Below, piece after piece: positions 4,465-55,090 of a stretch of DNA of 64,000 nt. The translations under genes were made by a program, and so were the position numbers. Source of the DNA: Candidatus Woesebacteria bacterium RIFCSPHIGHO2_02_FULL_42_20. GTDB taxonomy: Bacteria > Patescibacteriota > Microgenomatia > UBA8517. The stretch lies in contig MGGS01000013.1 in the NCBI GenBank assembly GCA_001792535.1, forward strand, positions 64,692-128,691, written 5' to 3'. Under the pieces are notes generated by a model. It was given only the letters and a program-made list of their open reading frames with translations, searched no databases and was not told the origin of the DNA. How positions within the stretch are numbered: position 1 is the stretch's first letter; each line of letters opens with the position of its first letter.

Positions 4465-4782
4465 CTCTGGAGGAAGGGCAATCGATCGCCAACAGCTACG
4501 CGGTTGTGGGCGGTAGGAAAGTCCAGGCAGCTCAAGGCAGGGTGGTCGTCGTAAGGCGGCACGCGAAAGCGCTAGAAAGTGCCACAGAGACAACGACTCA
4601 TCTTGGACCTAACCGGTCTAAGAAAGAGGGTGAAAAGAGGAAAACCTCCCCGCTGCAACCTCCGAATGGGGCGTTTGCTTGCCTACGCAAGTAGAAGGTA
4701 GCCTTGCCGAGCCCCGAAGCTTGAGGGCATAGATTGATGATTGCCATAAACAGAACCTGGCTTACTATCCTCCGGAGCCAAA
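4465..4782 (+). ncRNA. rnpB: RNase P RNA, bacterial type A
   Basis: GC-rich patch in an AT-rich genome. It contains GGAAAGTCCAGGC…AAGGCAGGGTGG, GTGCCACAGAGACAACGACTC, AGGGTGAAAAGAGG and the 3' block GGTAGCC…GCTTGAGGGCATAGATTGATGATTGCCATAAACAGAACCTGGCTTAC. These align segment by segment with the E. coli M1 RNA motifs GGAAAGUCCGGGCUCC, AGGGCAGG, ACAGAGAGCAAACC and ACAGAACCCGGCUUA. P1 can form between CTCTGGAGGA (4465-4474) and TCCTCCGGAG (4768-4777). Confidence 0.85.
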
Positions 4783-5521
4783 AAAACTCACCACATGGTG
4801 GGTTTTTTTGTGGATGAGAATCATATTTTTGCGCGACAGCCAAAAGACCCACTCCTTGAGGAAAGTTTATGTGTCTTAATACTTTGTTCTCGACTGCGAG
4901 AATATACTTGAAAATAAAATTAATAAAAGGGTTCACTTTGTTAAGTGATAAGTTTTTAAATAAGATAGCAGCTGGTAGTAAAGAAAAGTTCATGAATGAG
5001 AGCTTTGCAACTCTAAACCCTGCCCTTTCCAATTTTTCCCCGATCTCGCTTTTTGAGTATCTGTGGCGGGTGTGGACTTTTTGATCATGTTCGCTGAAAA
5101 GCCAGTTGTTGGCTGCAACTCTTAGAATCAAAAATCCCTTGGGTTGTATAACTCTGTAAAACTCCTTTATAGCTAGTTTGTCGTTGACACCTTTGTGGTA
5201 TAAAACATCAATTGAAGTGACGATGTTGAATGAGCTGGCCTTAAAAGGCAGTTTATTAATGGACGCTTTTATAGCATTTATACCTCTTTGTTGACAAAAT
5301 TTTATAGCCTCCGAACTTATATCGACACTTGTTACGCGGCCGTATTGTTTCAATTTTTTACTTAGGAGTCCAGTACCGCAACCAGCGTCTAAGATGGTGA
5401 CCGGTGTCTTGTGACCGGGGATTAGCGATTTGACTACGGAAATTACTAAGTTGTGCAAAGCAACATAATAAAAATGAGTGCTTTCGTTCTCAAATAACTT
5501 TTCGTATTCCGATACTCTCAC
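4598..5521 (-). CDS. class I SAM-dependent methyltransferase
   Basis: Motif I ILDAGCGTGLLS. Probable GTG start at 5521 overlapping the GT2 stop (GTGA). The ORF-track start at 5671 would overlap the GT2 gene by 154 nt. The last ~185 nt of the ORF run antisense through rnpB, so the true 3' end is uncertain. Confidence 0.55.
   Translation of the reverse strand: MRVSEYEKLFENESTHFYYVALHNLVISVVKSLIPGHKTPVTILDAGCGTGLLSKKLKQYGRVTSVDISSEAIKFCQQRGINAIKASINKLPFKASSFNIVTSIDVLYHKGVNDKLAIKEFYRVIQPKGFLILRVAANNWLFSEHDQKVHTRHRYSKSEIGEKLERAGFRVAKLSFMNFSLLPAAILFKNLSLNKVNPFINFIFKYILAVENKVLRHINFPQGVGLLAVAQKYDSHPQKNPPCGEFFWLRRIVSQVLFMAIINLCPQASGLGKATFYLRRQANAPFGGCSGEVFLFSPSFLDRLGPR
4783..4815. terminator. A-run / short hairpin / T-run terminator-like element after rnpB
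   Basis: CAAAAAAACTCACCACATGGTGGGTTTTTTTGTGG. A weak GC stem is flanked by A7 and T7 runs, so it is potentially bidirectional. Confidence 0.45.
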
Positions 5522-6219
5522 TTTTTCAATAGAAACAATTTTACCCACAGCATGATAAGTTCTTTGAAAGTTGAAACAATTCGATTGAATCTGAAAAATT
5601 GTGATTTCCCGTAACGCCTTTGATAGTGGTGGATTGAAACTTGGCGGAATTTGGCTCCTGCAAGCTGACACTTTTTGACCAATTCTACACAGACTGCCCC
5701 CGAATTTGAAGTCAATGTTATTTTGTCGATTATTTTTTTTCTAATGAGTCTGAAATCACAGTCAACGTCGTAGGTGGGAAGCCAAAAAAGCCAACGGGCG
5801 ACAAAGCTGTAAAGATTGCCTACGAATATGCGGTATGTGGGATCTCTCCTAGTCATTTTTATTCCGTTTACAAAGTCGGTATCAGAAGTCATTAGATTTG
5901 CAAGGATGGGTAGTTCGTGTACATCGTATTGACCGTCACCGTCGGTATAGAAAATGAGGTCCTTTGTGGAATTTGTAAACCCACTTTTTAAAGTACCCCC
6001 ATATCCCCGGTTAGTCTCGTGAAAAACGAGTTTTAGCTTTGGATAACTTTTCTTAAGTTTTTTTAGCACCTCTCTACTTTTGTCTTTGGAATCGTCATCG
6101 ACAACAATTACTTCGAAGTTACGTGTGATCTTGGGGAGGACAAGAAAAGCGTCTCTGACCAAGGTACCAATATTTGTTTCGTCGTTGAAGCAGGGGAAAA
6201 AGACCGAAATGCTGACCAT
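5518..6219 (-). CDS. family 2 glycosyltransferase, polyprenyl-phosphate sugar synthase type (DPM1/GtrB/ArnC-like)
   Basis: MVSISVFFPCFNDETNIGTLV…VIVVDDDSKDKS…NRGYGG… is a GT2 DxD/N-terminal signature. The protein is 233 aa. Confidence 0.8.
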   Translation of the reverse strand: MVSISVFFPCFNDETNIGTLVRDAFLVLPKITRNFEVIVVDDDSKDKSREVLKKLKKSYPKLKLVFHETNRGYGGTLKSGFTNSTKDLIFYTDGDGQYDVHELPILANLMTSDTDFVNGIKMTRRDPTYRIFVGNLYSFVARWLFWLPTYDVDCDFRLIRKKIIDKITLTSNSGAVCVELVKKCQLAGAKFRQVSIHHYQRRYGKSQFFRFNRIVSTFKELIMLWVKLFLLKK

Positions 6220-17304: not shown

Positions 17305-17498
17305 TTTTCTGGGTTTAGGATTTCCTGTGTATGTCAAAAGTGTGAAATAATATCTTGTCTTTTTGTATCGAGCTATTTCTCGTGGGCCTAATCGATCTTT
17401 TCTCATGTATCGCAAAATTTTATCTTGGTATTGCTTACCTCGATAGTTTGACTGTTTTTCACTAATGCGAACTAGATTATATCAAAGATAAAGTATAG

Positions 17499-17531
17499 CC
17501 CCTATAGTATTGCGCTAGGGGATTTAGATGG
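17499..17531. repeat. left copy (R1) of a 33-bp imperfect direct repeat flanking the six-gene island
   Basis: CCCCTATAGTATTGCGCTAGGGGATTTAGATGG is 28/33 identical to 23083..23115. It contains a CCCCTA…TAGGGG hairpin. Confidence 0.75.
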
Positions 17532-17545
17532 AAACTTTGTGCATT

Positions 17546-18601
17546 TTAAGGGGTACCTGTTCTTACCAATTGTCTTGCGAATAATTCTGTACCAAAACCA
17601 GATACGACCGTTGTTTCCTTCAGGTTAGAGGAAAGCCTTGCAACCCAATCTACTACGCCACCGTCAATAAAATCAACATCACCAACAAAGATTGTAAAAA
17701 CTTGTCCACTGTAATGTCCCCTTCCATACAATCTATCTAGTTGAAATGTATAAGTGACGTTTGGCTTGGGTGGTAAGCTTGTTAATACTCTTTCTATGGT
17801 TAAAAGTTCACCACCTATGTTTAACCCACCTGCTTGCTTTTGTGTTTCTGGCAAATTTATTATTTTCTGAGGTAATCTGCCTTGTAGGTTGTCAGCAAAT
17901 GATTCCGTCAAAAACTTGCCCTGTGTTTCCAGTTCGGCCGAACTTAAACTTGAAGAACTTTCTGGTAGTATTTTATTTGCTATTCCAACATTACCAACAC
18001 AAACCTCTAAATTTGATCCTGGTGAAATTTCACCAATAGCATTCAAGTAATAATCTATAAGATTTCTTAGAATTGAGATTTCTGGCGATCTATTATTGGT
18101 GTGTCTTAAAATCGAATCTGCTGTACCGAACATTTCAAAAGAAGTGAGATAATTTTTATCAGTATAACGTTGCAACCTCACACATTTATGAACTGCTCCA
18201 AGTTTAATTCCATTCTTGTTACCTTGTGATCTTCTTCTGTACACTTCCGTAGCTAATTGAGTGGTAGGGTCTGCAACTACATCTGCAGTTCTACCCGTAA
18301 CATGCGCCACTTTTAATGGTGATGTTCTTGCCAAAATCGAGTCCAACCCGAAAGGACTAAGAGCAGATAGATAAATCATTTCTCTGCCCCCCCGTTTCTC
18401 AAAGAGGATATTACCAATATTATGTAACACAAGTGCAGCTTCTCCGCTCAATGGTTGTCCGAAATCCCCATGGATTAGCCTTCTAATCGCCTGCAAATCA
18501 ATCTCTGCTTTACTAATTTTTCTGTGAAGTGCAGCTCTATAATCGGTATCGATTTTATCATTATTTAGATCTACACCTGCGACTCTATTTTCAATAGTCA
18601 T
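17546..18601 (-). CDS. hypothetical protein (351 aa), terminal gene of the island operon
   Basis: Long ORF packed 4 nt from the upstream methyltransferase. No motif recognised by eye (no P-loop, no radical-SAM Cys cluster). Confidence 0.4.
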   Translation of the reverse strand: MTIENRVAGVDLNNDKIDTDYRAALHRKISKAEIDLQAIRRLIHGDFGQPLSGEAALVLHNIGNILFEKRGGREMIYLSALSPFGLDSILARTSPLKVAHVTGRTADVVADPTTQLATEVYRRRSQGNKNGIKLGAVHKCVRLQRYTDKNYLTSFEMFGTADSILRHTNNRSPEISILRNLIDYYLNAIGEISPGSNLEVCVGNVGIANKILPESSSSLSSAELETQGKFLTESFADNLQGRLPQKIINLPETQKQAGGLNIGGELLTIERVLTSLPPKPNVTYTFQLDRLYGRGHYSGQVFTIFVGDVDFIDGGVVDWVARLSSNLKETTVVSGFGTELFARQLVRTGTP

Positions 18602-18604
18602 AAA

Positions 18605-19414
18605 TTAATTTAACTTCTTGGCTACTAAAATACACTGTTCTGAATCTATGTTTAAAGGTTCACCTTTGTAGCTTCCAAATGCCCTCAGAAAATGTAAACC
18701 TACACTTTCACACATCCTAATCAACTCTGAAAGTGTGTAGAATCTTATAACCATGTCAGTTCTCCGGACTTCACCATTAGGTTTTATTTTTGTGCGAGTT
18801 TCATGGTTGCGTGAAGTTAAAAAGTCGAATTTACGTTCAATTAGTACTTTTGTTCCGTCAGAATAGCTAACCCAATCTCGGGCTTGGTATATTCTCATAA
18901 TCCTTTCCCTATTAAAAAAATCCAACAAAAACCCCCCTCCATTTTTAAGTGACGTAGCTGCATTTTGAAGCACTCTTAAGTCGTCCTTCTCATCTTTAAA
19001 ATAACCAAAAGATGTAAACATGCTTATTACCACATCAAACCTGTTTTTGAAAGATACTCTACGCATATCAATTTTTATTAACTTAACCTTAAGTTTTAAC
19101 TTTATGGCATCGGATTTAGCCTTATTCAAATACCTCTTATTAATATCAATGCCTGTCAAAATATAACCTCTTTTAGCCAGCTCTAGCGTATGTCGACCAC
19201 TACCACAGGCTAAGTCAAGAATTTTATCGCCTCTTTTAAGGGTTAAGGCTTTTTCTAAAAAGTCAGCTTCTTTTTTTGTTCTATCTAAAGATATATATTC
19301 TGAAAATTCTTTAAAATAATCTTCGTTAAAGAATGGGTTAGTTTCTTCGTACCAATTATCATCATCTTTTCCCCGAAAATTATTATTACTATCTCTTCCT
19401 AATAATTTAGTCAT
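18605..19414 (-). CDS. class I SAM-dependent methyltransferase
   Basis: Motif I ILDLACGSGRHTLELAKRG, with the acidic post-I and motif II regions present. Confidence 0.7.
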   Translation of the reverse strand: MTKLLGRDSNNNFRGKDDDNWYEETNPFFNEDYFKEFSEYISLDRTKKEADFLEKALTLKRGDKILDLACGSGRHTLELAKRGYILTGIDINKRYLNKAKSDAIKLKLKVKLIKIDMRRVSFKNRFDVVISMFTSFGYFKDEKDDLRVLQNAATSLKNGGGFLLDFFNRERIMRIYQARDWVSYSDGTKVLIERKFDFLTSRNHETRTKIKPNGEVRRTDMVIRFYTLSELIRMCESVGLHFLRAFGSYKGEPLNIDSEQCILVAKKLN

Positions 19415-19417
19415 TAT

Positions 19418-20416
19418 TCAAATTACTGATCTGGAAATTTGTATTTTTCTTGTCTTAGTATCAATTAAACAGCTTGTTCCAATCGGAATAGTTGCTATCG
19501 GGTCAGTATGGCCAAAACTGACATCATATAGAACTGGTATATTTAGGCCTTTTAATATATCTTCTAAAACATCTTCTAATCTATCTGCTTTATTAAACCC
19601 AGAATTAGTTGCAAATTTGCCAAATACAATGCCCTTTATTTTACTAAATACACCTTGCTGTCTTAACCCTGTTAGATAATGATGTAACTGAGCAGTGTTT
19701 GTTTCCTCGCTTCCCTCCAAAAATAAAATGCGCCCTATAAAAGATGGACAATATGGAGTATCAATAACCGAACCTAAAGTCTCTATATTCGCCGCTACAA
19801 TTTTACCGCGTGCAGAACCCACTCTAAATACTCTTACACCATCGTTCTTTTTTATCTTTCTGTGTTCGTCGTCTTTCCTTAGATAAAAGGCATCATCCGC
19901 ATAATATTTTGGTGTTCCGATAACAGTTTTTTTCTTAGGCTTAACGCAAGTATCGGAAAAAGAACTCCATGTATATTCAAAGAAATCGGGTTTAGCAAAA
20001 GATATTACAGAAGGCCCCATAAAAGTTATCAGACCTGTTTTTTTATAAATCCCCAGTAGGAGAGAAGTTGTATCGGAAAATCCTATAAAAATTTTAGGAT
20101 TTCTTTTTATTAAATCATAATTTATATATTCCAACAATTGATTAGAGTTATATCCTCCCCAAAATGTCATTATGCAACTTATTTCTTTGTTCTCAAAAAA
20201 TTCGTGAATTGCGCGAACTCTATCTTCAATGGTTCCTGCTGAGTGCCCGTAAATTTTCCTACATTGAGGATGTTCTACAACCTTCAAGCCATGGTTTTTC
20301 AATATTCTATAACCCTTTTGTATTACCTCTTCTTTACATTCTGTTATTGGTATGGAAAGTGCAATAACACCAATCGTTTCACCATTATTTATTCGAGGAG
20401 GTTTTATTATCTTCAT
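19418..20416 (-). CDS. S66 family LD-carboxypeptidase (MccF/LdcA-like)
   Basis: …GETIGVIALSIPI…FIGFSDTTSLLLGI… The nucleophile serine sits in a GFSD context, and the protein is ~330 aa, typical of peptidase S66. Confidence 0.7.
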   Translation of the reverse strand: MKIIKPPRINNGETIGVIALSIPITECKEEVIQKGYRILKNHGLKVVEHPQCRKIYGHSAGTIEDRVRAIHEFFENKEISCIMTFWGGYNSNQLLEYINYDLIKRNPKIFIGFSDTTSLLLGIYKKTGLITFMGPSVISFAKPDFFEYTWSSFSDTCVKPKKKTVIGTPKYYADDAFYLRKDDEHRKIKKNDGVRVFRVGSARGKIVAANIETLGSVIDTPYCPSFIGRILFLEGSEETNTAQLHHYLTGLRQQGVFSKIKGIVFGKFATNSGFNKADRLEDVLEDILKGLNIPVLYDVSFGHTDPIATIPIGTSCLIDTKTRKIQISRSVI

Positions 20417-20422
20417 AAGTAA

Positions 20423-21226
20423 TTAAAATAAGATAATTTCTCGAAAATTCCTTTTTCTTAATATAAACACTCCGTATGACAAATATTTCATATTTTCACT
20501 GAATAACGTCATGATATTGAACATTCTGTTTATTGCGGCTTCTTCAATATTAGCCTGCCATCTCTTTTGACGAACAAGCTCGGTACAGTAATTCAGTATT
20601 TTCTCCTGGGTAACAGGCTCTGTCTTATTTTTATAACAATAATACATTTCAAGGTCCGCTTTGCTATAGTGATCTATCCAGTACTTTATTGGCCAGGGTA
20701 GTATTTTTGTTCCCATTAAGTGATTGATTTTATCAATCAACTTCTTGGGAGGTTTAGAATGGTAATAAAAATTGATATCGCCAACAAAACCCCAATCTTT
20801 GGTGGTTCTTCTGTATTCGCTTAATGCCCGTGGTATATCAGTGATGAAGGCTGTAGAGCCACCACTCATTACCAAATCAAATTCCCCATTTTCAAATGGT
20901 AAACTCTTTCCGTCTGCTTTAATAAAATTTACATTTCTCTTTAGATCAGAGTGATATTCATCGAGCATCCTGTTGGCTGTTTTTATCATTTTCCCGCTTA
21001 TATCTATCCCCGTTACTTTGCAATGAGTTAAGTGGGCAATCTCAAAAGAACAAAACCCAGTATTACAACCAACATCCAGAACTCTTGAGTTCCTATCTAA
21101 AAAGGTATTTTGTACGAGTTTTTTTATAGAATCTTTTCCTCCGGGGGGACGGTTGATCTCATCGAGCGTAGCTATAAGTTTAACGTAACTAAGTCTTTCT
21201 ATTAATTCTGGTGTAATCTTATCCAT
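20423..21226 (-). CDS. class I SAM-dependent methyltransferase
   Basis: Motif I VLDVGCNTGFCSFEIA. Confidence 0.7.
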   Translation of the reverse strand: MDKITPELIERLSYVKLIATLDEINRPPGGKDSIKKLVQNTFLDRNSRVLDVGCNTGFCSFEIAHLTHCKVTGIDISGKMIKTANRMLDEYHSDLKRNVNFIKADGKSLPFENGEFDLVMSGGSTAFITDIPRALSEYRRTTKDWGFVGDINFYYHSKPPKKLIDKINHLMGTKILPWPIKYWIDHYSKADLEMYYCYKNKTEPVTQEKILNYCTELVRQKRWQANIEEAAINRMFNIMTLFSENMKYLSYGVFILRKRNFREIILF

Positions 21227-21237
21227 TTACCAATTAT

Positions 21238-21618
21238 TCATTGTAGTTTTCTTGTTATTTCCTTACGTGTCACACTCGATGGACCAAATAAGGTTGAGAT
21301 TTTGTTAAATAATTCTCGTGCTTTATTACTATTGTCTTTTGAGTAGTTACATATAAACACGTTCAAGCTAACGTATCTATATTCAGGCCAAATATGGAAA
21401 GCAATATGAGACTCCGCCAAGGCAACTACTCCAGTTATTCCTCCATTTCCAAACTGATGATAGTACGAACCCAATTCTAAAAAACCTACTGACTTAATTA
21501 ACAAAGAGATTAAAGTCTGTATTTTCCTTTTAGATAAGTTGTTGATTTTTTTTTCATCGTTTCCCCACAAATCACCTACAATTTCTAGACCAACAATTTC
21601 AATTTTTTTACTCATCAT
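21238..21618 (-). CDS. pyruvoyl-dependent S-adenosylmethionine decarboxylase-like protein (SpeH/SpeD small type)
   Basis: …FGNGGITGVVALAESHIAFHIWPEYRYVSLNVFIC… aligns with the SpeH self-processing site (…[23 protein letters not shown]…). The ES|H serinolysis site is conserved. Confidence 0.75.
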   Translation of the reverse strand: MMSKKIEIVGLEIVGDLWGNDEKKINNLSKRKIQTLISLLIKSVGFLELGSYYHQFGNGGITGVVALAESHIAFHIWPEYRYVSLNVFICNYSKDNSNKARELFNKISTLFGPSSVTRKEITRKLQ

Positions 21619-21623
21619 ATCTG

Positions 21624-22670
21624 TTAAAAAGTAAATTTCTGACCATTAAATCTTGGTAAAGTTTGCATGTCTCGAATGTCGTTATGTTTTAGTAACCATA
21701 GAAAAAATCTCTCTACCCCTAGCCCGAAACCAGAAGTTTGAACAGGCACCTCATCCTTAATTGTTATATACCATTTATAAGGAGTTTCATCTATTTGATG
21801 TAAAGTAAGGGCTTCCCGCACTTCTTGTCCAGAAAGGTGGCGTTCTCCTGATCCAATAGTCTCACCAATACCCATCAGGAGGTCTGCATTAAGAGCTATC
21901 TTTTTATTTGCTCCAGGCGCAAATTTTTGATAGAAGGGAACAGCCATATGATCAAAATTGGTAAGCCAGACATATCCACCAAAATATTTCATCAATTCCG
22001 CTTCCCCTTTGCTATTAATATTTCGGTAAAGCGCATAACTCTCTACAAAATCGGGGTTGTTATCTAGAATTCTGACTGCCTCTTCAAAGGTGCATTTTGG
22101 TATGTTATATCCGTGCTGTGAGATATACTTAATATGTTCAGTAGTACCAGCAACAGATAATATCTCTTTTTCTAAAGTTTTAAGAAAGTGATTAGAAAGA
22201 TAAACGATATATTGCTCACAAAGTTTAATTACATTATCTAGTGTACCAATAATTTCTGCCTCGGAGTGGTAAAACTGGCCAAGATGACGCTCATCGGCTG
22301 ACTCGCCTCTAAATGATGGCGCGACATAATAAACGCCTTCTTTGTTTATTCGACAAGAGTATTCTAGAAAAAATTGCATGGAATCAGCCAAATAAGTATC
22401 AATTCCAGCAATTTGTACGTGCACTGGCACAGAGTCGCTACCCAAACCCATGGGACTGGAAATTGATCCAGTTGTAATTGGAAGTTGTACAGATTTAATA
22501 CCTCTCTGGCGGTAAAAGCTGACAGTTGCAAAGTTGAATTCGTCCTGTAATAAAGCCAATACTCTATACCATTCGTTTCTTAATGGAATTTTGTAATGAG
22601 TGGACAAATCTTTCCAAGATTTTGGTGGTTTTATTTTATTGTTCATATTAATAAAAATTAACTTGACCAA
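21624..22670 (-). CDS. stand-alone class II aminoacyl-tRNA-synthetase catalytic-core paralog (AsnA/AsnRS/AspRS-like; no anticodon-binding domain)
   Basis: Motif 2 PSFRGESADERHLGQFYHSEAE and motif 3 GFGLGVERFFLWLL of subclass IIb synthetases. At 348 aa it is too short to carry an OB anticodon-binding domain. Confidence 0.65.
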   Translation of the reverse strand: MVKLIFINMNNKIKPPKSWKDLSTHYKIPLRNEWYRVLALLQDEFNFATVSFYRQRGIKSVQLPITTGSISSPMGLGSDSVPVHVQIAGIDTYLADSMQFFLEYSCRINKEGVYYVAPSFRGESADERHLGQFYHSEAEIIGTLDNVIKLCEQYIVYLSNHFLKTLEKEILSVAGTTEHIKYISQHGYNIPKCTFEEAVRILDNNPDFVESYALYRNINSKGEAELMKYFGGYVWLTNFDHMAVPFYQKFAPGANKKIALNADLLMGIGETIGSGERHLSGQEVREALTLHQIDETPYKWYITIKDEVPVQTSGFGLGVERFFLWLLKHNDIRDMQTLPRFNGQKFTF

Positions 22671-23082
22671 ACAGTTATAAAGTCAATTTGTGTATTATAG
22701 ATATGAAAATTGTAATTAACAAACATTTTCTTCACCCGTTATTCATTTTGTGTTGTGCTGTCGATGAAATGTTTGATCTTTCGACTTGCCCTGTGTGAAA
22801 ACATAATTTGAAAACCCGTGTCTTTGGGTCTGTATTTGCAATGCTTTTACAAGATGCAGAGCTGTTGTTTCTTGTGGGTATAAATGATCTTTCTTCATAA
22901 CATTACATTAAAAAACCTCCTTTCAGGAGGCTTGATTCAAAGAAAGTTTATTACATCAAACCTCCGCCTTGGTCCGATTGACAAGGCGAGAGAGATGAAT
23001 GTAAAAGACAAGATATTTACGCATACGAGGGTATTATAATCTCTCCCCATAATTTTGTAAAGAAATTTTGTAAAGTGGGAAG

Positions 23083-23115
23083 CTCCTATAGTATTGCACT
23101 AGAGGATTTGGGTGG
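23083..23115. repeat. right copy (R2) of the 33-bp direct repeat
   Basis: CTCCTATAGTATTGCACTAGAGGATTTGGGTGG abuts the TATAAT of the rel/spoT gene. Confidence 0.75.
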
Positions 23116-23121
23116 TATAAT
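23116..23121 (+). promoter_or_regulatory. -10 box (TATAAT) 6 nt upstream of the rel/spoT ATG; probable leaderless transcript
   Basis: GGTGGTATAATTTGCCAATG: the ATG at 23128 falls where transcription initiation is expected. There is no SD. Confidence 0.4.
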
Positions 23122-23127
23122 TTGCCA

Positions 23128-24946
23128 ATGTCGATAGCTGAGAATAGAAGCTTTTTTGCCTCTCCTGAGATTGATCCCCAATCCAGACTGGGGATTCTTA
23201 ATATGAATGATGACGACTTAACTGGTCAAGTTCTTCAGGCGTATAAGGTAGCTGAATCGGCTCATAGAGGGCAGAGGAGGTTCTCGGATGAGCCTTATAT
23301 AAATCACTGTTTGGCGACTTTGAGAATTTTGGAAGCTATGGGCATTGAGGATTCAGAGATGCTTATGGCAGCCTTGTTGCATGATGTGGTTGAAGATGAT
23401 ACCGGAATCAATTTGGCAGCGCTAGAGCAGGAATTCGGCAATAGCGTTGCCCAACTGGTTGACGGGGTAACTAAACTACACACCGGAGATCAAGAAACAG
23501 CAGAAGCTTTAAGAGTTGTATCTTTATCTTACCTTGAGCCCAAGGTTGCAATTCTGAAGCTTGCTGATCGATTGCATAACATGATGACTTTGGGGAGCGT
23601 ACCGGACAATGAAAAGAGGATTTAGAAAGGCTAGGGAAACTTTGGAAGTCTACGCCCCTCTGGCCGAGTCACTGGGGATGTATGAAGTAAAAACTTTACT
23701 TGAAGATCTTGCTTTTGCACATATTGCCCCAGATCAGTTCGTACCGGTAAAAAGAAAGGTGGATCAGGATCCCAGATTAGATGATAAGTTTTTAGCATAT
23801 TGGATATCTAGGATTCAGGCGATACTTGACGAGAAGGGAATTAAAGGCTAGATTGAAGTCGCTCGGAATGGCTATTTTACTATAGAGACTAAGCGAAAAA
23901 ACTTGGGCAGTGCTGATACAAGGGGAATTGACGATCTAGTAAGTATAAGGGTGATCCTTCCAACACTCGATGATTGTTACCTGGCGAATGGTTTGTTGCA
24001 TATAAATCTTGGCGAAATTGTGGATTATAGTAGATTTGATGAATTCGTGGGAGCCAATGCCAGAGTCAATGGCTACTCTGCACTCCAGACAACCCTTGAG
24101 ACAAATCAGGGATCTTTAGAGGTTGCCTTGGTGACGCCGCAAATGGAAGAATTTAACCGCTGGGGAGTTGTCAGTTTACTCAGGCGTGGAGAGAGAGATC
24201 TTGAACATTTTACGCTGAAATCGGCTTTCGGGTCGGATGGAAAGGTTTTGTTTTTACCTAAACTGGCGACTGGAGTTGACTTGGTTTGTGCCATGGGGTC
24301 TAGGCTTTTGGCTAATGCCAATGCGATAAAAATAGACAATAGAGAGTTTCCGTTGACGGTAGTTGTTCCCAATGCGGCCAGATTTGAGGTAATTCTTGGT
24401 AATGAAGCAAGAATTGCCCCACTCCCGGAGCTTCTGGATTATTGTCTCCCCGCGACAAAGAGAATAATACTGGGACAGCTGGAAGTTGCGGAAAGATACG
24501 AACTGGCTAGTAAAGGCAAAAAAATATTGGAAGGAGTTCTTTCTCCTCGGGGAATTTTGGATCTCGGGGATGTCGAAGGAGTGGTCAGGGATTTGATCTA
24601 TTCACACGGTAGCCTGGAAGGCTTATATCTCAAAGTCGGATCTGGAGTAGTAAGCAGAGAAGAGGTTGCTCACTGGCTGGATGCTCACGGAATAACTAAA
24701 GATCGGTTGAAGTTAACAACAGTTCGTGTTGCAGGACTTGATCAGCCGGGTATCTTAGATGACCTGATACATCTGATTCGCAGGCAAGGCGATGGTGTTA
24801 ATATTAAAGGAATAGACCTACAAGGGGGAGACGATAACAGGTTTACATTGCGCTTAGTTGTTGAGCAGCTGGAATCTTCGTCGGAAGAAGCTATTCGGGT
24901 GGAAATAGGAAAAGATAGCCGTTTTGATGAATGGGTTGTGGTTTGA
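23128..24946 (+). pseudogene. RelA/SpoT-family (p)ppGpp synthetase/hydrolase homolog disrupted by a +1 frameshift (~23611-23625) and an in-frame TAG (23849-23851)
   Basis: Three consecutive ORFs (23122-23625, 23609-23851, 23903-24946) together cover the HD hydrolase domain (HRGQRRFSDEPYINHCL…LLHDVVEDD), a degenerate synthetase region (…DLVSIRVI…NGYSALQT), TGS and a C-terminal ACT domain (VRVAGLDQPGILDDL). The frame changes at an A-run. Confidence 0.65.
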
Positions 24947-25453: not shown

Positions 25454-27256
25454 ATGGAAAGAACATTAGCCAAAGAAACAATTAGTAAAGTCGGTCAAAA
25501 GATCTTGCTCAAAGGCTGGGTAGCGACTATCCGCGATCACGGGAAGATTACTTTTTTGGATTTGAGGGATAGAAGCGGTAAAGTCCAATGTGTAGGTCAG
25601 GGTTTGTCAAAAATAACTACCGAAAGCGTGGTTGAAATTGAAGGCATAGTCGCAAAGCGTCCCGAAAAATTGGTTAACAAAAACTTGGAAACCGGAACAG
25701 TTGAAGTCCAGATCGAAAAGCTTGACGTCTTATCGGTAGCGCAAGATTTGCCAATAGACATGGGTAAAGAAGATTTGGATGTTTCTTTGCCGACTCTGCT
25801 TGACTTCCGCCCTTTGACTCTGCGAAATAAAAAAGTTAACTCCATCTTTAAAGTTCAGGAGGTTGTTATTGATTCTTTCAGAGAAGCCTTAAAGAAAAAA
25901 GATTTTTTTGAATTCCAGGCTCCAGTTTTTATTCCTGAGATTGCAGAGGGAGGAGCAGAAGTATTCAAAGTTCCTTATTTTAGCCACGAAGTCTACTTGT
26001 CTCAAAGCCCCCAGCTTTATAAGCAAATTTTAGTAGGCGCATATGAAAGAGTTTTTTCGGTGAATAAGACTTTGCGGGCAGAGCCGTCGGTGACTACCCG
26101 TCATTTAACGGAGGTTACTACACTTGATGCAGAGTTTGGCTTCATAGATAACTGGACCCAAGTGAAAGATATGGCCGAATACACAATAAAATATATGTTG
26201 AAAGCAGTTGAGGACAAATGCGGTGATATATTGGAAAGTTTTGGGGTTACTATACCAAAGTTTACGGACAGTATTCCGACAATAAAACTTCGTGAAGCAC
26301 AGGAAATTATTTATAGACGAACCAAAAGGGATAATAGAAATGAACCGGATTTGCAACCAGAAGATGAGAGAGAGATCTGTAAGTGGTCACTAGAGGAAAA
26401 GGGGAGCGACTTAGTCTTTGTTTCGCATTATCCAACCAAAAAAAGGCCGTTTTATACATATCAAGAGCCAGAAGACCCTGAATTTACCCAAAGTATGGAT
26501 TTGCTTGGCAGGGGTACGGAATGGATGACCGGTGGAAGAAGAATTAATGATTATGAGTTTTTGATTAAGATGGCAAAGGAGAGAAAAGTTGACCCTGAAA
26601 AACTTGATCTTTATTTGCAGGCCTTTAAGTTCGGAATGCCGCCAGAGGGCGGGTTTTCATTCGGATCAGAAAGGGTGACGATGCACATTCTTGGACTTGC
26701 TAACATCCGAGAAGCCTCACTTTTCCCGAGAGATATGGAAAGAGTAGATATTAGGCTATCAACGATACGAAAAGAAAGCCGAGTTTTGAAGGACGAAAGA
26801 AAAGATATATTTGAGATAATTGTCGATTCATTGGACTCGAAGGACATCCCCTTTGAAAAATATGAACACGAGCCGGTTTATACAAGTGAACAGGCTGCTA
26901 AAATTCGGGGAACTGATATTCATCAGGGAGCAAAAGCGCTGGTCTTACAGGCGGACAAAGATTTTATTTTATATGTTTTACCCGCTGACTTGCAGGCCAA
27001 TTTGGAAGGACTCCAAAATAAACTAAAGGTGAAAAAGTTAAGAATGGCATCCAAAGATTCTGTTAAAGCAAAAACAGGCCTTGAGGTTGGAGCAGTTCCG
27101 CCATTAGGATCATTCGTTGGACTTAAAACCTATGTCGACCCAAGGCTTTCTGAAAATAAAGAGATTGTTTTCAATGCTGGTCGTCACGACCGATCTATAA
27201 AAATGAGATATTCTGACTTCGTTAGACTCGAAAAACCTAAAATTATTCAGTTGTAA
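25454..27256 (+). CDS. aspS: aspartyl-tRNA synthetase (archaeal/eukaryal-type core) fused to a C-terminal YbaK/ProX-like aminoacyl-tRNA deacylase domain
   Basis: N-terminal OB fold, motif 2 LRAEPSVTTRHLTEVTTLDAEFGF and motif 3 GGFSFGSERVTMHILGLANIREASLFPRD end the core near residue 433. Residues ~440-600 align with YbaK (IPFEKYEHEP…KALVLQADKDFILYVLPADLQANLEGLQNKL…KAKTGLEVGAVPPLG…EIVFNAGRHDRSIKMRYSDFVRL). Confidence 0.85.
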   Translation: MERTLAKETISKVGQKILLKGWVATIRDHGKITFLDLRDRSGKVQCVGQGLSKITTESVVEIEGIVAKRPEKLVNKNLETGTVEVQIEKLDVLSVAQDLPIDMGKEDLDVSLPTLLDFRPLTLRNKKVNSIFKVQEVVIDSFREALKKKDFFEFQAPVFIPEIAEGGAEVFKVPYFSHEVYLSQSPQLYKQILVGAYERVFSVNKTLRAEPSVTTRHLTEVTTLDAEFGFIDNWTQVKDMAEYTIKYMLKAVEDKCGDILESFGVTIPKFTDSIPTIKLREAQEIIYRRTKRDNRNEPDLQPEDEREICKWSLEEKGSDLVFVSHYPTKKRPFYTYQEPEDPEFTQSMDLLGRGTEWMTGGRRINDYEFLIKMAKERKVDPEKLDLYLQAFKFGMPPEGGFSFGSERVTMHILGLANIREASLFPRDMERVDIRLSTIRKESRVLKDERKDIFEIIVDSLDSKDIPFEKYEHEPVYTSEQAAKIRGTDIHQGAKALVLQADKDFILYVLPADLQANLEGLQNKLKVKKLRMASKDSVKAKTGLEVGAVPPLGSFVGLKTYVDPRLSENKEIVFNAGRHDRSIKMRYSDFVRLEKPKIIQL

Positions 27257-55048: not shown

Positions 55049-55090
55049 GATGTGATTATAACAAAGTTGATGTTGTCTTTGAGAAGAGAG

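Follow-up and report, generated by a model that had tools for sequence, protein, structure and literature searches.

A compact six-gene operon

Contig MGGS01000013.1 of Candidatus Woesebacteria bacterium RIFCSPHIGHO2_02_FULL_42_20, a groundwater bacterium of the candidate phyla radiation (CPR) with a tiny genome, carries an island of six minus-strand genes encoding two proteins related to class II aminoacyl-tRNA synthetases (aaRS), three S-adenosylmethionine (SAM) enzymes and a serine peptidase of family S66. We propose that this island probably belongs with the agrocin 84 (agn) and microcin C (mcc) type of cassette. Our analysis covered a stretch of 64,000 nucleotides (nt), hereafter the window, and all coordinates are window positions unless a locus label (L001 and so on) is given, in which case they refer to that comparison locus.

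An earlier interpretation made from the letters alone, hereafter the sequence-only reading, had described six tightly packed minus-strand open reading frames (ORFs) at 17546-22670, with gaps of 3-11 nt. These coordinates proved correct, and the gaps measured 3, 3, 6, 11 and 5 nt. In the order of transcription, the operon and its upstream site comprise:

22722->22694 (22694..22722), minus strand: promoter-like site TTGTTA-17-TATAAT, found by a consensus scan (10/12) just upstream of the operon; a consensus match only
21624..22670, minus strand: AgnA-like class II aaRS catalytic-core ligase (AsnA/AsnRS-type core, no anticodon domain)
21238..21618, minus strand: small pyruvoyl-type S-adenosylmethionine decarboxylase (AdoMetDC; SpeH/class 1b type), a cassette accessory gene
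20423..21226, minus strand: MTase-A, AgnB1/MccD-like class I SAM-dependent transferase
19418..20416, minus strand: MccF/AgnC5-like S66 serine peptidase
18605..19414, minus strand: MTase-B, second class I SAM methyltransferase
17546..18601, minus strand: ORF6 (351 aa), divergent HisRS/HisZ-like class II aaRS core with no anticodon-binding domain

Because the gaps are this short, a scan of the block at 17546-22670 found no minus-strand terminator-like site inside it, and a promoter-like site lies directly upstream, the six genes can reasonably be read as a single transcription unit. The organisation of the locus is identical in eight assemblies of this Woesebacteria population. Pfam and NCBIfam bore out the five family assignments already made from the sequence: tRNA-synt_2, AdoMet_dc, two class I methyltransferases, and Peptidase_S66 with both its N- and C-terminal domains.

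Further upstream, the interval 22913-23061 holds a near-consensus promoter-like site on the minus strand (TTTACA-17-TATAAT, 11/12) and, about 100 nt after it, a strong hairpin resembling a terminator (AAGCCTCCTGAAAGGAGGTTT and a run of T). The two may mark a small transcript or a leader upstream of the operon; Rfam gave no match for this element. With Rfam, at either gathering or E-value thresholds, nothing meaningful was found to indicate a structured RNA, riboswitch or T-box, whether in the 450 nt upstream or in the direct repeats that flank the island (R1 and R2, described below). A defence system was likewise discarded as a candidate, PADLOC models having matched only generic methyltransferases.

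Protein families and their recurrence in other genomes

The ligase matches PF00152 (tRNA-synt_2; E 1e-31, residues 30-340). Gene callers in other assemblies start it at the ATG at 22646, and the closest orthologue, 70% identical, aligns there, so that this ATG is probably the true start, giving a protein of 340 aa. With AgnA, which is annotated as 'agrocin 84 synthetase' on plasmid pAgK84, it shares 38% identity over 333 aa (E 7e-86), and it falls in the AgnA clade of an identity matrix. A tblastn search of plasmids returned genes whose products are 45-54% identical to it from Bacillus pseudomycoides, Peribacillus, Exiguobacterium, Pantoea, Streptomyces and Xenorhabdus, and the AgnA-like family as a whole is large (1763 clusters at E<=1e-60). 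Like asparagine synthetase A (AsnA), including the archaeal type that is an AsnRS paralogue, the ligase has a class II Asp/Asn-type core without an anticodon domain, and AsnA models are its best NCBIfam matches. However, its scores on the two AsnA equivalogs are well under the curated cutoffs (NF005055, 260 bits, cutoff 389; NF005053, 246 bits, cutoff 322), and in the contexts seen it always lies within a methyltransferase/S66 cassette. AgnA and the plasmid homologues score like the window ligase on these models, all under the cutoffs, and the archaeal AsnA structure 3p8t gave just 38 bits.

In plasmids of Pantoea agglomerans (L031 8758-11269), an AgnA-like ligase that is 48% identical to ours is fused to an N-terminal GNAT-annotated region and is followed by a major facilitator superfamily (MFS) transporter gene; neither a methyltransferase nor an S66 gene lies near it. 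This arrangement may be a different minimal variant.

MTase-A is 32% identical to AgnB1 over 265 aa (E 2e-48; 4e-50 in a second comparison) and 31% identical to E. coli MccD over 191 aa (E 2e-27), and an N-terminal NRPPGG-type motif is common to MTase-A, MccD and all AgnB1-like proteins. Against MccD, MTase-A and the AgnB1-like proteins score 87-102 bits, compared with about 31 bits for AgnC3, an unrelated class I methyltransferase, which indicates that they are specifically related to MccD. MTase-A has orthologues in L001, L005, L009 and L014. MTase-B (Methyltransf_25, E 6e-19) has no orthologue in the other cassette loci and was found only in this lineage's cassette; its match to AgnC3 is weak (28% identity over 119 aa, E 1e-6; 3e-8 in a second comparison).

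AdoMetDC matches PF02675 (E 8e-22) and passes TIGR03330 narrowly (77.4 bits against a cutoff of 75.65). Its ESH self-cleavage site is present in the sequence (AESHIAFHIWPE; motif AESHIAFH). Paralogues of this enzyme that use other substrates are known. In the window, L001 and L005, which are independent loci, the AdoMetDC gene is found immediately upstream of the one for the MccD-like transferase, and L001 also encodes a SpeE-type aminopropyltransferase (240 bits). Both AdoMetDC and SpeE are missing from most cassette loci, and the window holds no spermidine synthase, in agreement with the earlier statement that the island does not encode a standard polyamine pathway.

The S66 peptidase contains PF02016 and PF17676. 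In a phmmer search of solved structures in the PDB, it scored 173-190 bits with MccF and MccF-like proteins (173 bits with E. coli MccF) versus 48-97 bits with LdcA-type enzymes, and on the LdcA equivalog NF008424 it reached 111.7 bits, below the cutoff of 378. It is 32% identical over 337 aa (E 2e-51) to AgnC5, which is annotated as 'MccF-like', and an alignment to E. coli MccF from plasmid MccC7-H22 showed that the S118/E243/H311 triad (E. coli MccF numbering) is conserved. These comparisons place the enzyme in the MccF clade, far nearer to MccF than to LdcA. LdcA, the murein tetrapeptide LD-carboxypeptidase, shares with it the S66 fold and a Ser-Glu-His triad, but the window protein is closer to MccF in sequence, misses the LdcA cutoff and has genomic partners that are not murein-recycling genes.

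The product of the last gene, ORF6, had been described as a protein of no recognisable family, and it has no match in Pfam or NCBIfam. An AF2 model built from 13 homologues (predicted local distance difference test score 72.5, predicted TM-score 0.75) revised this view. All of the top 50 Foldseek matches were HisRS, HisZ or the HisRS-like domain of GCN2, with a best E of 2e-12, a probability of 1.0 and a query TM-score (TMq) of 0.5-0.6 for HisRS/HisZ, and the sequence profile weakly matched HisRS (1wu7) and HisZ (5m8h). The model and the profile matches thus indicate that ORF6 is a truncated, divergent class IIa synthetase core. Like HisZ, it has the catalytic-core fold without the anticodon-binding domain, and it keeps a motif-2-like R..R.Q. 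It differs from HisZ and HisRS in having no hisG partner, altered His-binding motifs, no motif-3 Arg and a strongly conserved signature of its own. The close ORF6 family is rare (13 clusters in 5.8e9 proteins), and a full hidden Markov model (HMM) scan recovered a broader uncharacterised family with about 1000 representatives at 50% identity. Members of this broad HisRS-like family (P0141-P0276; L028 8872-10032; L038 8865-9998) are mostly 310-390 aa long and have no Pfam assignment or a sub-threshold one; some are fused to GNAT domains, including the RimL-type Acetyltransf_3, or to metallo-beta-lactamase domains.

The core genes of the island travel together in many unrelated genomes and plasmids, and the neighbourhood conservation that the sequence-only reading had proposed as a check was thus found. 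A quartet composed of an AgnA-like ligase, a second truncated class II core, a SAM transferase and an S66 peptidase recurs in about 20 loci, among them CPR metagenome contigs and plasmids of Bacillus, Peribacillus, Xenorhabdus, Streptomyces, Bradyrhizobium and Agrobacterium, often beside an extra full-length synthetase (Pro, Glu, Ala or Leu). In pAgK84 the order is agnA, the SAM methyltransferase gene agnB1, agnB2 for a resistant LeuRS, and agnC1-C7, which include 'MccF-like' agnC5. The Xenorhabdus locus has the same gene set with a LeuRS, a class IIa-like core and an MFS transporter; that of Peribacillus has it with an AlaRS, an AlaRS-like core, an MFS transporter and an ATP-grasp enzyme; and the set is also present in Exiguobacterium, Streptomyces and Bradyrhizobium. 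Among the agn-like loci examined, only those of Pantoea and Bradyrhizobium are without a second truncated class II core, the family of which differs between loci; for AgnC1, in which Pfam finds nothing, the class II assignment comes from a review alone (PMC8323819).

About 11 of the loci with ORF6 have both an S66 gene and an AsnA-like gene, as does every such locus that is long enough to judge, and a class I methyltransferase is usual. In six loci a ProRS without the INS editing domain is present, often overlapping ORF6 by its stop codon; NCBIfam identified this class IIa synthetase as ProRS, and HisRS was discarded as its identity. In B. pseudomycoides, the gene for an ORF6-family protein has neighbours that encode a methyltransferase, an additional GluRS, an S66 peptidase and an MFS pump. 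The metagenomic locus L038, which holds the closest relative of the window ligase (the 70% identical orthologue), has a row of four genes for a methyltransferase, an S66 peptidase, a HisRS-like protein and an AsnA-like protein; the HisRS-like protein belongs to the broad ORF6 family (E 2e-35). In the remaining ORF6 loci, the AsnA-like proteins group into a second clade, which resembles AsnRS more and shares 30-35% identity with the window ligase; the window cassette thus pairs the rare ORF6 type with an AgnA-clade ligase.

Several other genes accompany these cassettes. Two NUDIX hydrolase genes, together with a CYTH gene in L001, flank the cassette in a metagenome-assembled genome (MAG) labelled Gammaproteobacteria, and two NUDIX genes likewise lie beside the agn region of pAgK84 (L001 16674-18692; L030 5994-6935); they may provide a shared accessory function on nucleotide products. 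On plasmid pBTZ_2 of B. pseudomycoides, ahcY (adenosylhomocysteinase; L041 2936-4243) is located near the methyltransferase/AgnA-like pair, echoing the report that S-adenosylhomocysteine hydrolase is necessary for agrocin 84 production (PMC8323819). Two cassette-bearing MAGs (L001/L007 and L008) are titled 'uncultured Gammaproteobacteria bacterium', and the GC content of L001 is 34%; either the cassette crosses phyla or these labels are unreliable.

Flanking repeats and the origin of the island

No other 5.1-kb span of the window has a GC content as low as that of the island (0.35 versus 0.41 in the remainder), and the GC content of third codon positions (GC3) is 0.24-0.35 in its genes compared with 0.36-0.52 in flanking genes. 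In both GC and GC3, then, it deviates from its surroundings. The features around it are:

17497..17531, plus strand: R1, left copy of an imperfect direct repeat, 30/35 identical to R2
23081..23115, plus strand: R2, right copy of the repeat, abutting TATAAT (23116-23121) and the rel/spoT start
17376-17406 and 22868-22898, plus strand: second collinear block, 24/31 identical (blastn E 8e-4)
17349..17363 (plus strand) and 23003..23017 (minus strand): exact 15-nt inverted pair AATATCTTGTCTTTT, with exactly two copies in the window, bracketing the island together with R1 and R2
23122..24946, plus strand: split rel/spoT gene in three ORFs, which takes up the remainder of the variable interval between RecJ and AspRS (context, not cassette)

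The direct repeats reported by the sequence-only reading are real: they are 28/33 identical over the span first described and 30/35 when extended, occur as two copies in the window versus none in shuffles, and are recovered by blastn between the two flanking intergenic regions (E 3e-7). They fold no better than shuffled sequence (z-scores near 0). R2 may lie in the rel/spoT promoter, as first proposed: it ends 6 nt before the TTG, and by direct reading it is overlapped by TTGCAC-N16-TATAAT, but the promoter scan made no call there. Two small minus-strand ORFs (MKKDHLYPQE / MRKDRLGPRE) have their starts within the block at 22868-22898; the idea that they encode precursor peptides was not supported, since they are conserved in no other locus.

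The rel/spoT gene, earlier described as disrupted, is split. Its three pieces match HD_4 (86 bits), nothing, and a partial RelA_SpoT (31 bits) with a weak ACT domain. The same split is present in all eight assemblies, so it reflects a pseudogene or a naturally split gene and not an assembly error. The GC content of rel/spoT (0.44-0.45) is like that of the genome and unlike that of the island.

In a related Woesebacterium (L027), the segments SecDF-CCA-RecJ and AspRS-S11-x-GluRS are syntenic with the window and four unrelated genes lie between RecJ and AspRS, rel/spoT being absent from the interval. A closer relative has yet other genes after recJ, and the contents of the RecJ-AspRS interval differ between L026 and L027. 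The deviant GC and GC3 and the variability of this interval in relatives thus support horizontal acquisition of the island. The proposal that it arrived by insertion was only partly sustained: the composition and the variable interval favour it, but no recombinase (integrase or transposase) is encoded between RecJ and AspRS, and the repeats are just 86% identical. Nor is there a transposase near the 15-nt inverted pair. A tRNA-linked integration was discarded, the sole tRNA in the window lying at 55090.

The repeats failed to appear where the same cassette occurs in other contexts: they are absent from the other cassette loci and from relatives and were found only in this organism's assemblies, for which reason we rejected them as an element intrinsic to the cassette. 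The 15-nt inverted pair is likewise confined to this lineage. A search for a relative without the island gave no empty site with R; among RecJ homologues with contigs, the nearest are 75% and 57% identical. Reading R1 and R2 as insertion scars is thus conjecture; besides scars, they may be what is left of a duplication of the region upstream of rel/spoT, or have another origin.

Elsewhere in the window, the AspRS gene (25454-27256, plus strand) encodes an archaeal/non-discriminating type core with a C-terminal YbaK-type editing domain (PF04073, 107 bits), and the syntenic AspRS of L027 (455 aa) is without this domain. An RNase P RNA of bacterial class A lies at 4466-4780 (plus strand, 109 bits); the minus-strand ORF at 4598-5671 that overlaps it is probably spurious at that end.

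A candidate aminoacyl-nucleotide pathway and its alternatives

The agn cluster (pAgK84, Rhizobium rhizogenes K84) shares with the window homologues of AgnA, AgnB1 (whose gene adjoins agnA) and AgnC5 and the presence of a second divergent class II aaRS-like protein (AgnC1 there, ORF6 here), and both loci are carried on mobile or accessory DNA. The sister cassettes, unlike the island, often also have a full-length aaRS in the cluster, as agn has AgnB2, the immunity LeuRS (PMC8323819). In contrast, AdoMetDC and MTase-B are without an agn counterpart, the host is a CPR bacterium, and the identities are just 32-38%; the island also lacks agnC2/C4/C6/C7 and agnD-F (pentanamide, 3'-deoxy sugar, opine-like moiety). 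The agrocin 84 pathway is itself not settled; proposals name AgnA or the ProRS-like AgnC1 as the enzyme that makes the phosphoramide bond in the leucyl-adenylate mimic (PMC8323819).

The mccABCDEF cluster of E. coli provides a second comparison, through the MccD homologue and the MccF homologue with its intact triad. MccD transfers a 3-amino-3-carboxypropyl group to the phosphate of microcin C (McC), MccD and MccE together install aminopropyl, and MccF cleaves the acyl-N bond of McC and processed McC (PMC8323819). The capacity of the cassette to make an aminopropyl donor parallels the aminopropyl group on the McC phosphate (PMC8323819), but here it would come from decarboxylated SAM (dcSAM) supplied by AdoMetDC and not from transfer followed by pyridoxal phosphate-dependent decarboxylation. 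The island also has no MccC pump and no MccE. None of its six proteins has a ThiF/E1 domain (MccB), class II aaRS paralogues replacing the enzyme that forms the N-P bond in McC; the proposed route would need no MccA precursor, and an MccA-like peptide was not systematically searched for.

Phosmidosine, from Streptomyces, is a prolyl-AMP-like phosphoramidate nucleotide antibiotic (PMC6429109, PMC11229370). The product class predicted here, an N-acyl phosphoramidate nucleotide resembling aminoacyl-AMP, is like it by chemical analogy only; ProRS is the co-located synthetase in most ORF6-type cassettes, although the window island is without one. By that analogy, phosmidosine is a chemical precedent for the ProRS-linked cassettes. 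The O-methyl group on its phosphoramidate would fit an MccD/AgnB1-like transferase. We know of no phosmidosine gene cluster, and a literature search of incomplete coverage found no description of the present cassette.

Taken together, the homology to AgnA, AgnB1 and AgnC5, the relation to MccD, the MccF-type S66 peptidase and the gene neighbourhoods favour what was suggested earlier, namely that the island makes an aminoacyl-nucleoside-like small molecule and that its S66 enzyme acts as a built-in hydrolase or immunity factor. We consider it likely, on balance, that the island is a horizontally acquired agn/mcc-type cassette that makes a non-hydrolysable aminoacyl-nucleotide inhibiting an aaRS and that carries its own detoxifying hydrolase. 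From homology and conserved association, we infer the chemistry of every step, the product and its target as follows. The product would be an N-acyl phosphoramidate mimic of an aminoacyl-adenylate. The AgnA-like ligase and ORF6 would choose an acyl unit derived from an amino acid and link it, via an amide-N-P bond, to a nucleotide; one paralogue may amidate the carboxylate as AsnA does, and the other may attack the alpha-phosphate of a nucleoside triphosphate. AdoMetDC would make dcSAM, and MTase-A would alkylate the phosphate of the phosphoramidate, adding aminopropyl if the donor is dcSAM and methyl if it is SAM. Where AdoMetDC is adjacent, as it is in three loci, dcSAM would be the donor and aminopropyl the group added. 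MTase-B would add a further methyl, and the S66 peptidase would cleave the acyl-N bond of product that accumulates inside the producer.

Several points weigh against this interpretation. Agrocin 84 is the sole member of the cassette family with a known product, and since it is not known to bear an alkyl group on its 5'-phosphoramidate, MccD is the one precedent for the role proposed for AgnB1-like proteins. About ten contexts of the AgnA-like family were inspected, and some members could be ordinary amidoligases. In the S66 peptidase, the column of the adenine-stacking W186 of MccF is Leu, with Phe-Tyr 1-2 residues upstream, in a loop whose alignment is uncertain. ORF6 has a hydrophobic residue in place of the class II motif-3 Arg and altered HisA/HisB motifs (GHY.G, DGG.VDW), so it may be non-catalytic, like HisZ. 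Homology between ORF6 and AgnC1 was not detectable, hhalign of the ORF6 profile giving a probability of 0.1, and ORF6 is at most a functional analogue of AgnC1; homology of ORF6 to the aaRS-related protein of Xenorhabdus was likewise not supported, hhalign giving nothing. Finally, no AgnB2-like resistant aaRS is found among the six window genes, whereas sister cassettes have a ProRS, GluRS, AlaRS or LeuRS, and the island (17546-22670) contains neither an AgnG-type exporter nor any gene for a carrier or uptake moiety. Transporter, dehydrogenase, dioxygenase and radical-SAM genes are likewise absent from 17546-22670.

It is unlikely that the product is instead a non-nucleotide amide, in which the AsnA-type ligase joins a carboxylate, such as that of an amino acid, to an aminopropyl or polyamine amine made via AdoMetDC, with the S66 peptidase as the cognate amidase. 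AsnA joins a carboxylate and an amine into an amide, and this idea would accommodate AdoMetDC in the operon, the SpeE-type enzyme of L001 and an island without exporter or resistant aaRS. However, the absence of AdoMetDC and SpeE from most cassette loci makes the polyamine part accessory. The transferase is MccD-like and the peptidase MccF-like, both from families that act on phosphoramidate nucleotides, and the full-length aaRS copies and MFS pumps of sister clusters fit a toxic aaRS inhibitor.

Modification of a macromolecule, which the earlier interpretation had allowed for, appears improbable. Here the two truncated synthetases would aminoacylate a protein or tRNA, as EpmA/GenX does on EF-P, before methyl or aminopropyl addition, and the S66 enzyme would remove the mark. 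Class II paralogues that are truncated and have roles of this kind are known (EpmA, YadB), several loci show translational coupling between ProRS and ORF6, and the island has no exporter. But AgnA, AgnB1 and AgnC5, to which our proteins are homologous, belong to a genetically defined small-molecule cluster; the sister clusters are plasmid-borne and include MFS pumps, ATP-grasp enzymes and duplicate synthetases; and the EpmA model gave an E of just 0.06.

We regard as very improbable that the island serves resistance alone, with MccF-like hydrolysis and the modifying enzymes neutralising aminoacyl-nucleotide antibiotics of neighbours and nothing being synthesised. Stand-alone MccF homologues do confer McC resistance (PMC8323819), and exporter and precursor genes are lacking here, but two ligase paralogues of adenylate-forming type and a SAM decarboxylase have no obvious detoxification role, and agn, a production cluster, requires the same ligase.

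That the genes are unrelated housekeeping neighbours (a real asparagine synthetase A, SpeH, LdcA and generic methyltransferases) is likewise very improbable: PGAP names their homologues 'asparagine synthetase A' and 'LD-carboxypeptidase' and AdoMetDC passes its model cutoff, but the AsnA and LdcA cutoffs are missed widely (260 vs 389, 246 vs 322, 112 vs 378), the core genes are found together in about 20 loci whose flanks and hosts are otherwise unrelated, gaps of 3-11 nt indicate one transcription unit, the S66 peptidase groups with MccF, and the window has no spermidine synthase. Both automatic names are probably misleading for these genes.

Returning to the aminoacyl-nucleotide proposal, the island would be a stripped-down, six-gene relative of the cluster for agrocin 84, a commercial biocontrol antibiotic, and the roughly 20 related loci suggest that a core of four genes is conserved. 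This core could show how class II synthetase paralogues make N-P-linked adenylate mimics, and the analysis of ORF6 gives an uncharacterised family of HisRS-like proteins, with about 1000 sequence clusters, both a predicted fold and a genomic role. What sets the present locus apart is its CPR host, its minimal gene set, and a HisRS-like second ligase together with the pairing of AdoMetDC and an MccD-like transferase. Tentatively, we suggest that it may represent an undescribed, widespread class of minimal four-part cassettes, made up of an AgnA-like ligase, a second truncated class II paralogue, an MccD-like or other SAM transferase and an MccF-like peptidase, which might build aminoacyl-phosphoramidate nucleotide mimics of adenylates without a ribosomal peptide or a ThiF-type enzyme. 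In such a class the identity of the co-located synthetase (Pro, Glu, Ala or Leu) would reveal the target, and CPR/Patescibacteria, including this Woesebacterium, would deploy a version aminopropylated from dcSAM, perhaps against hosts or competitors. If true, this would give CPR bacteria, whose biosynthetic capacity is minimal, a candidate chemical weapon or signal.

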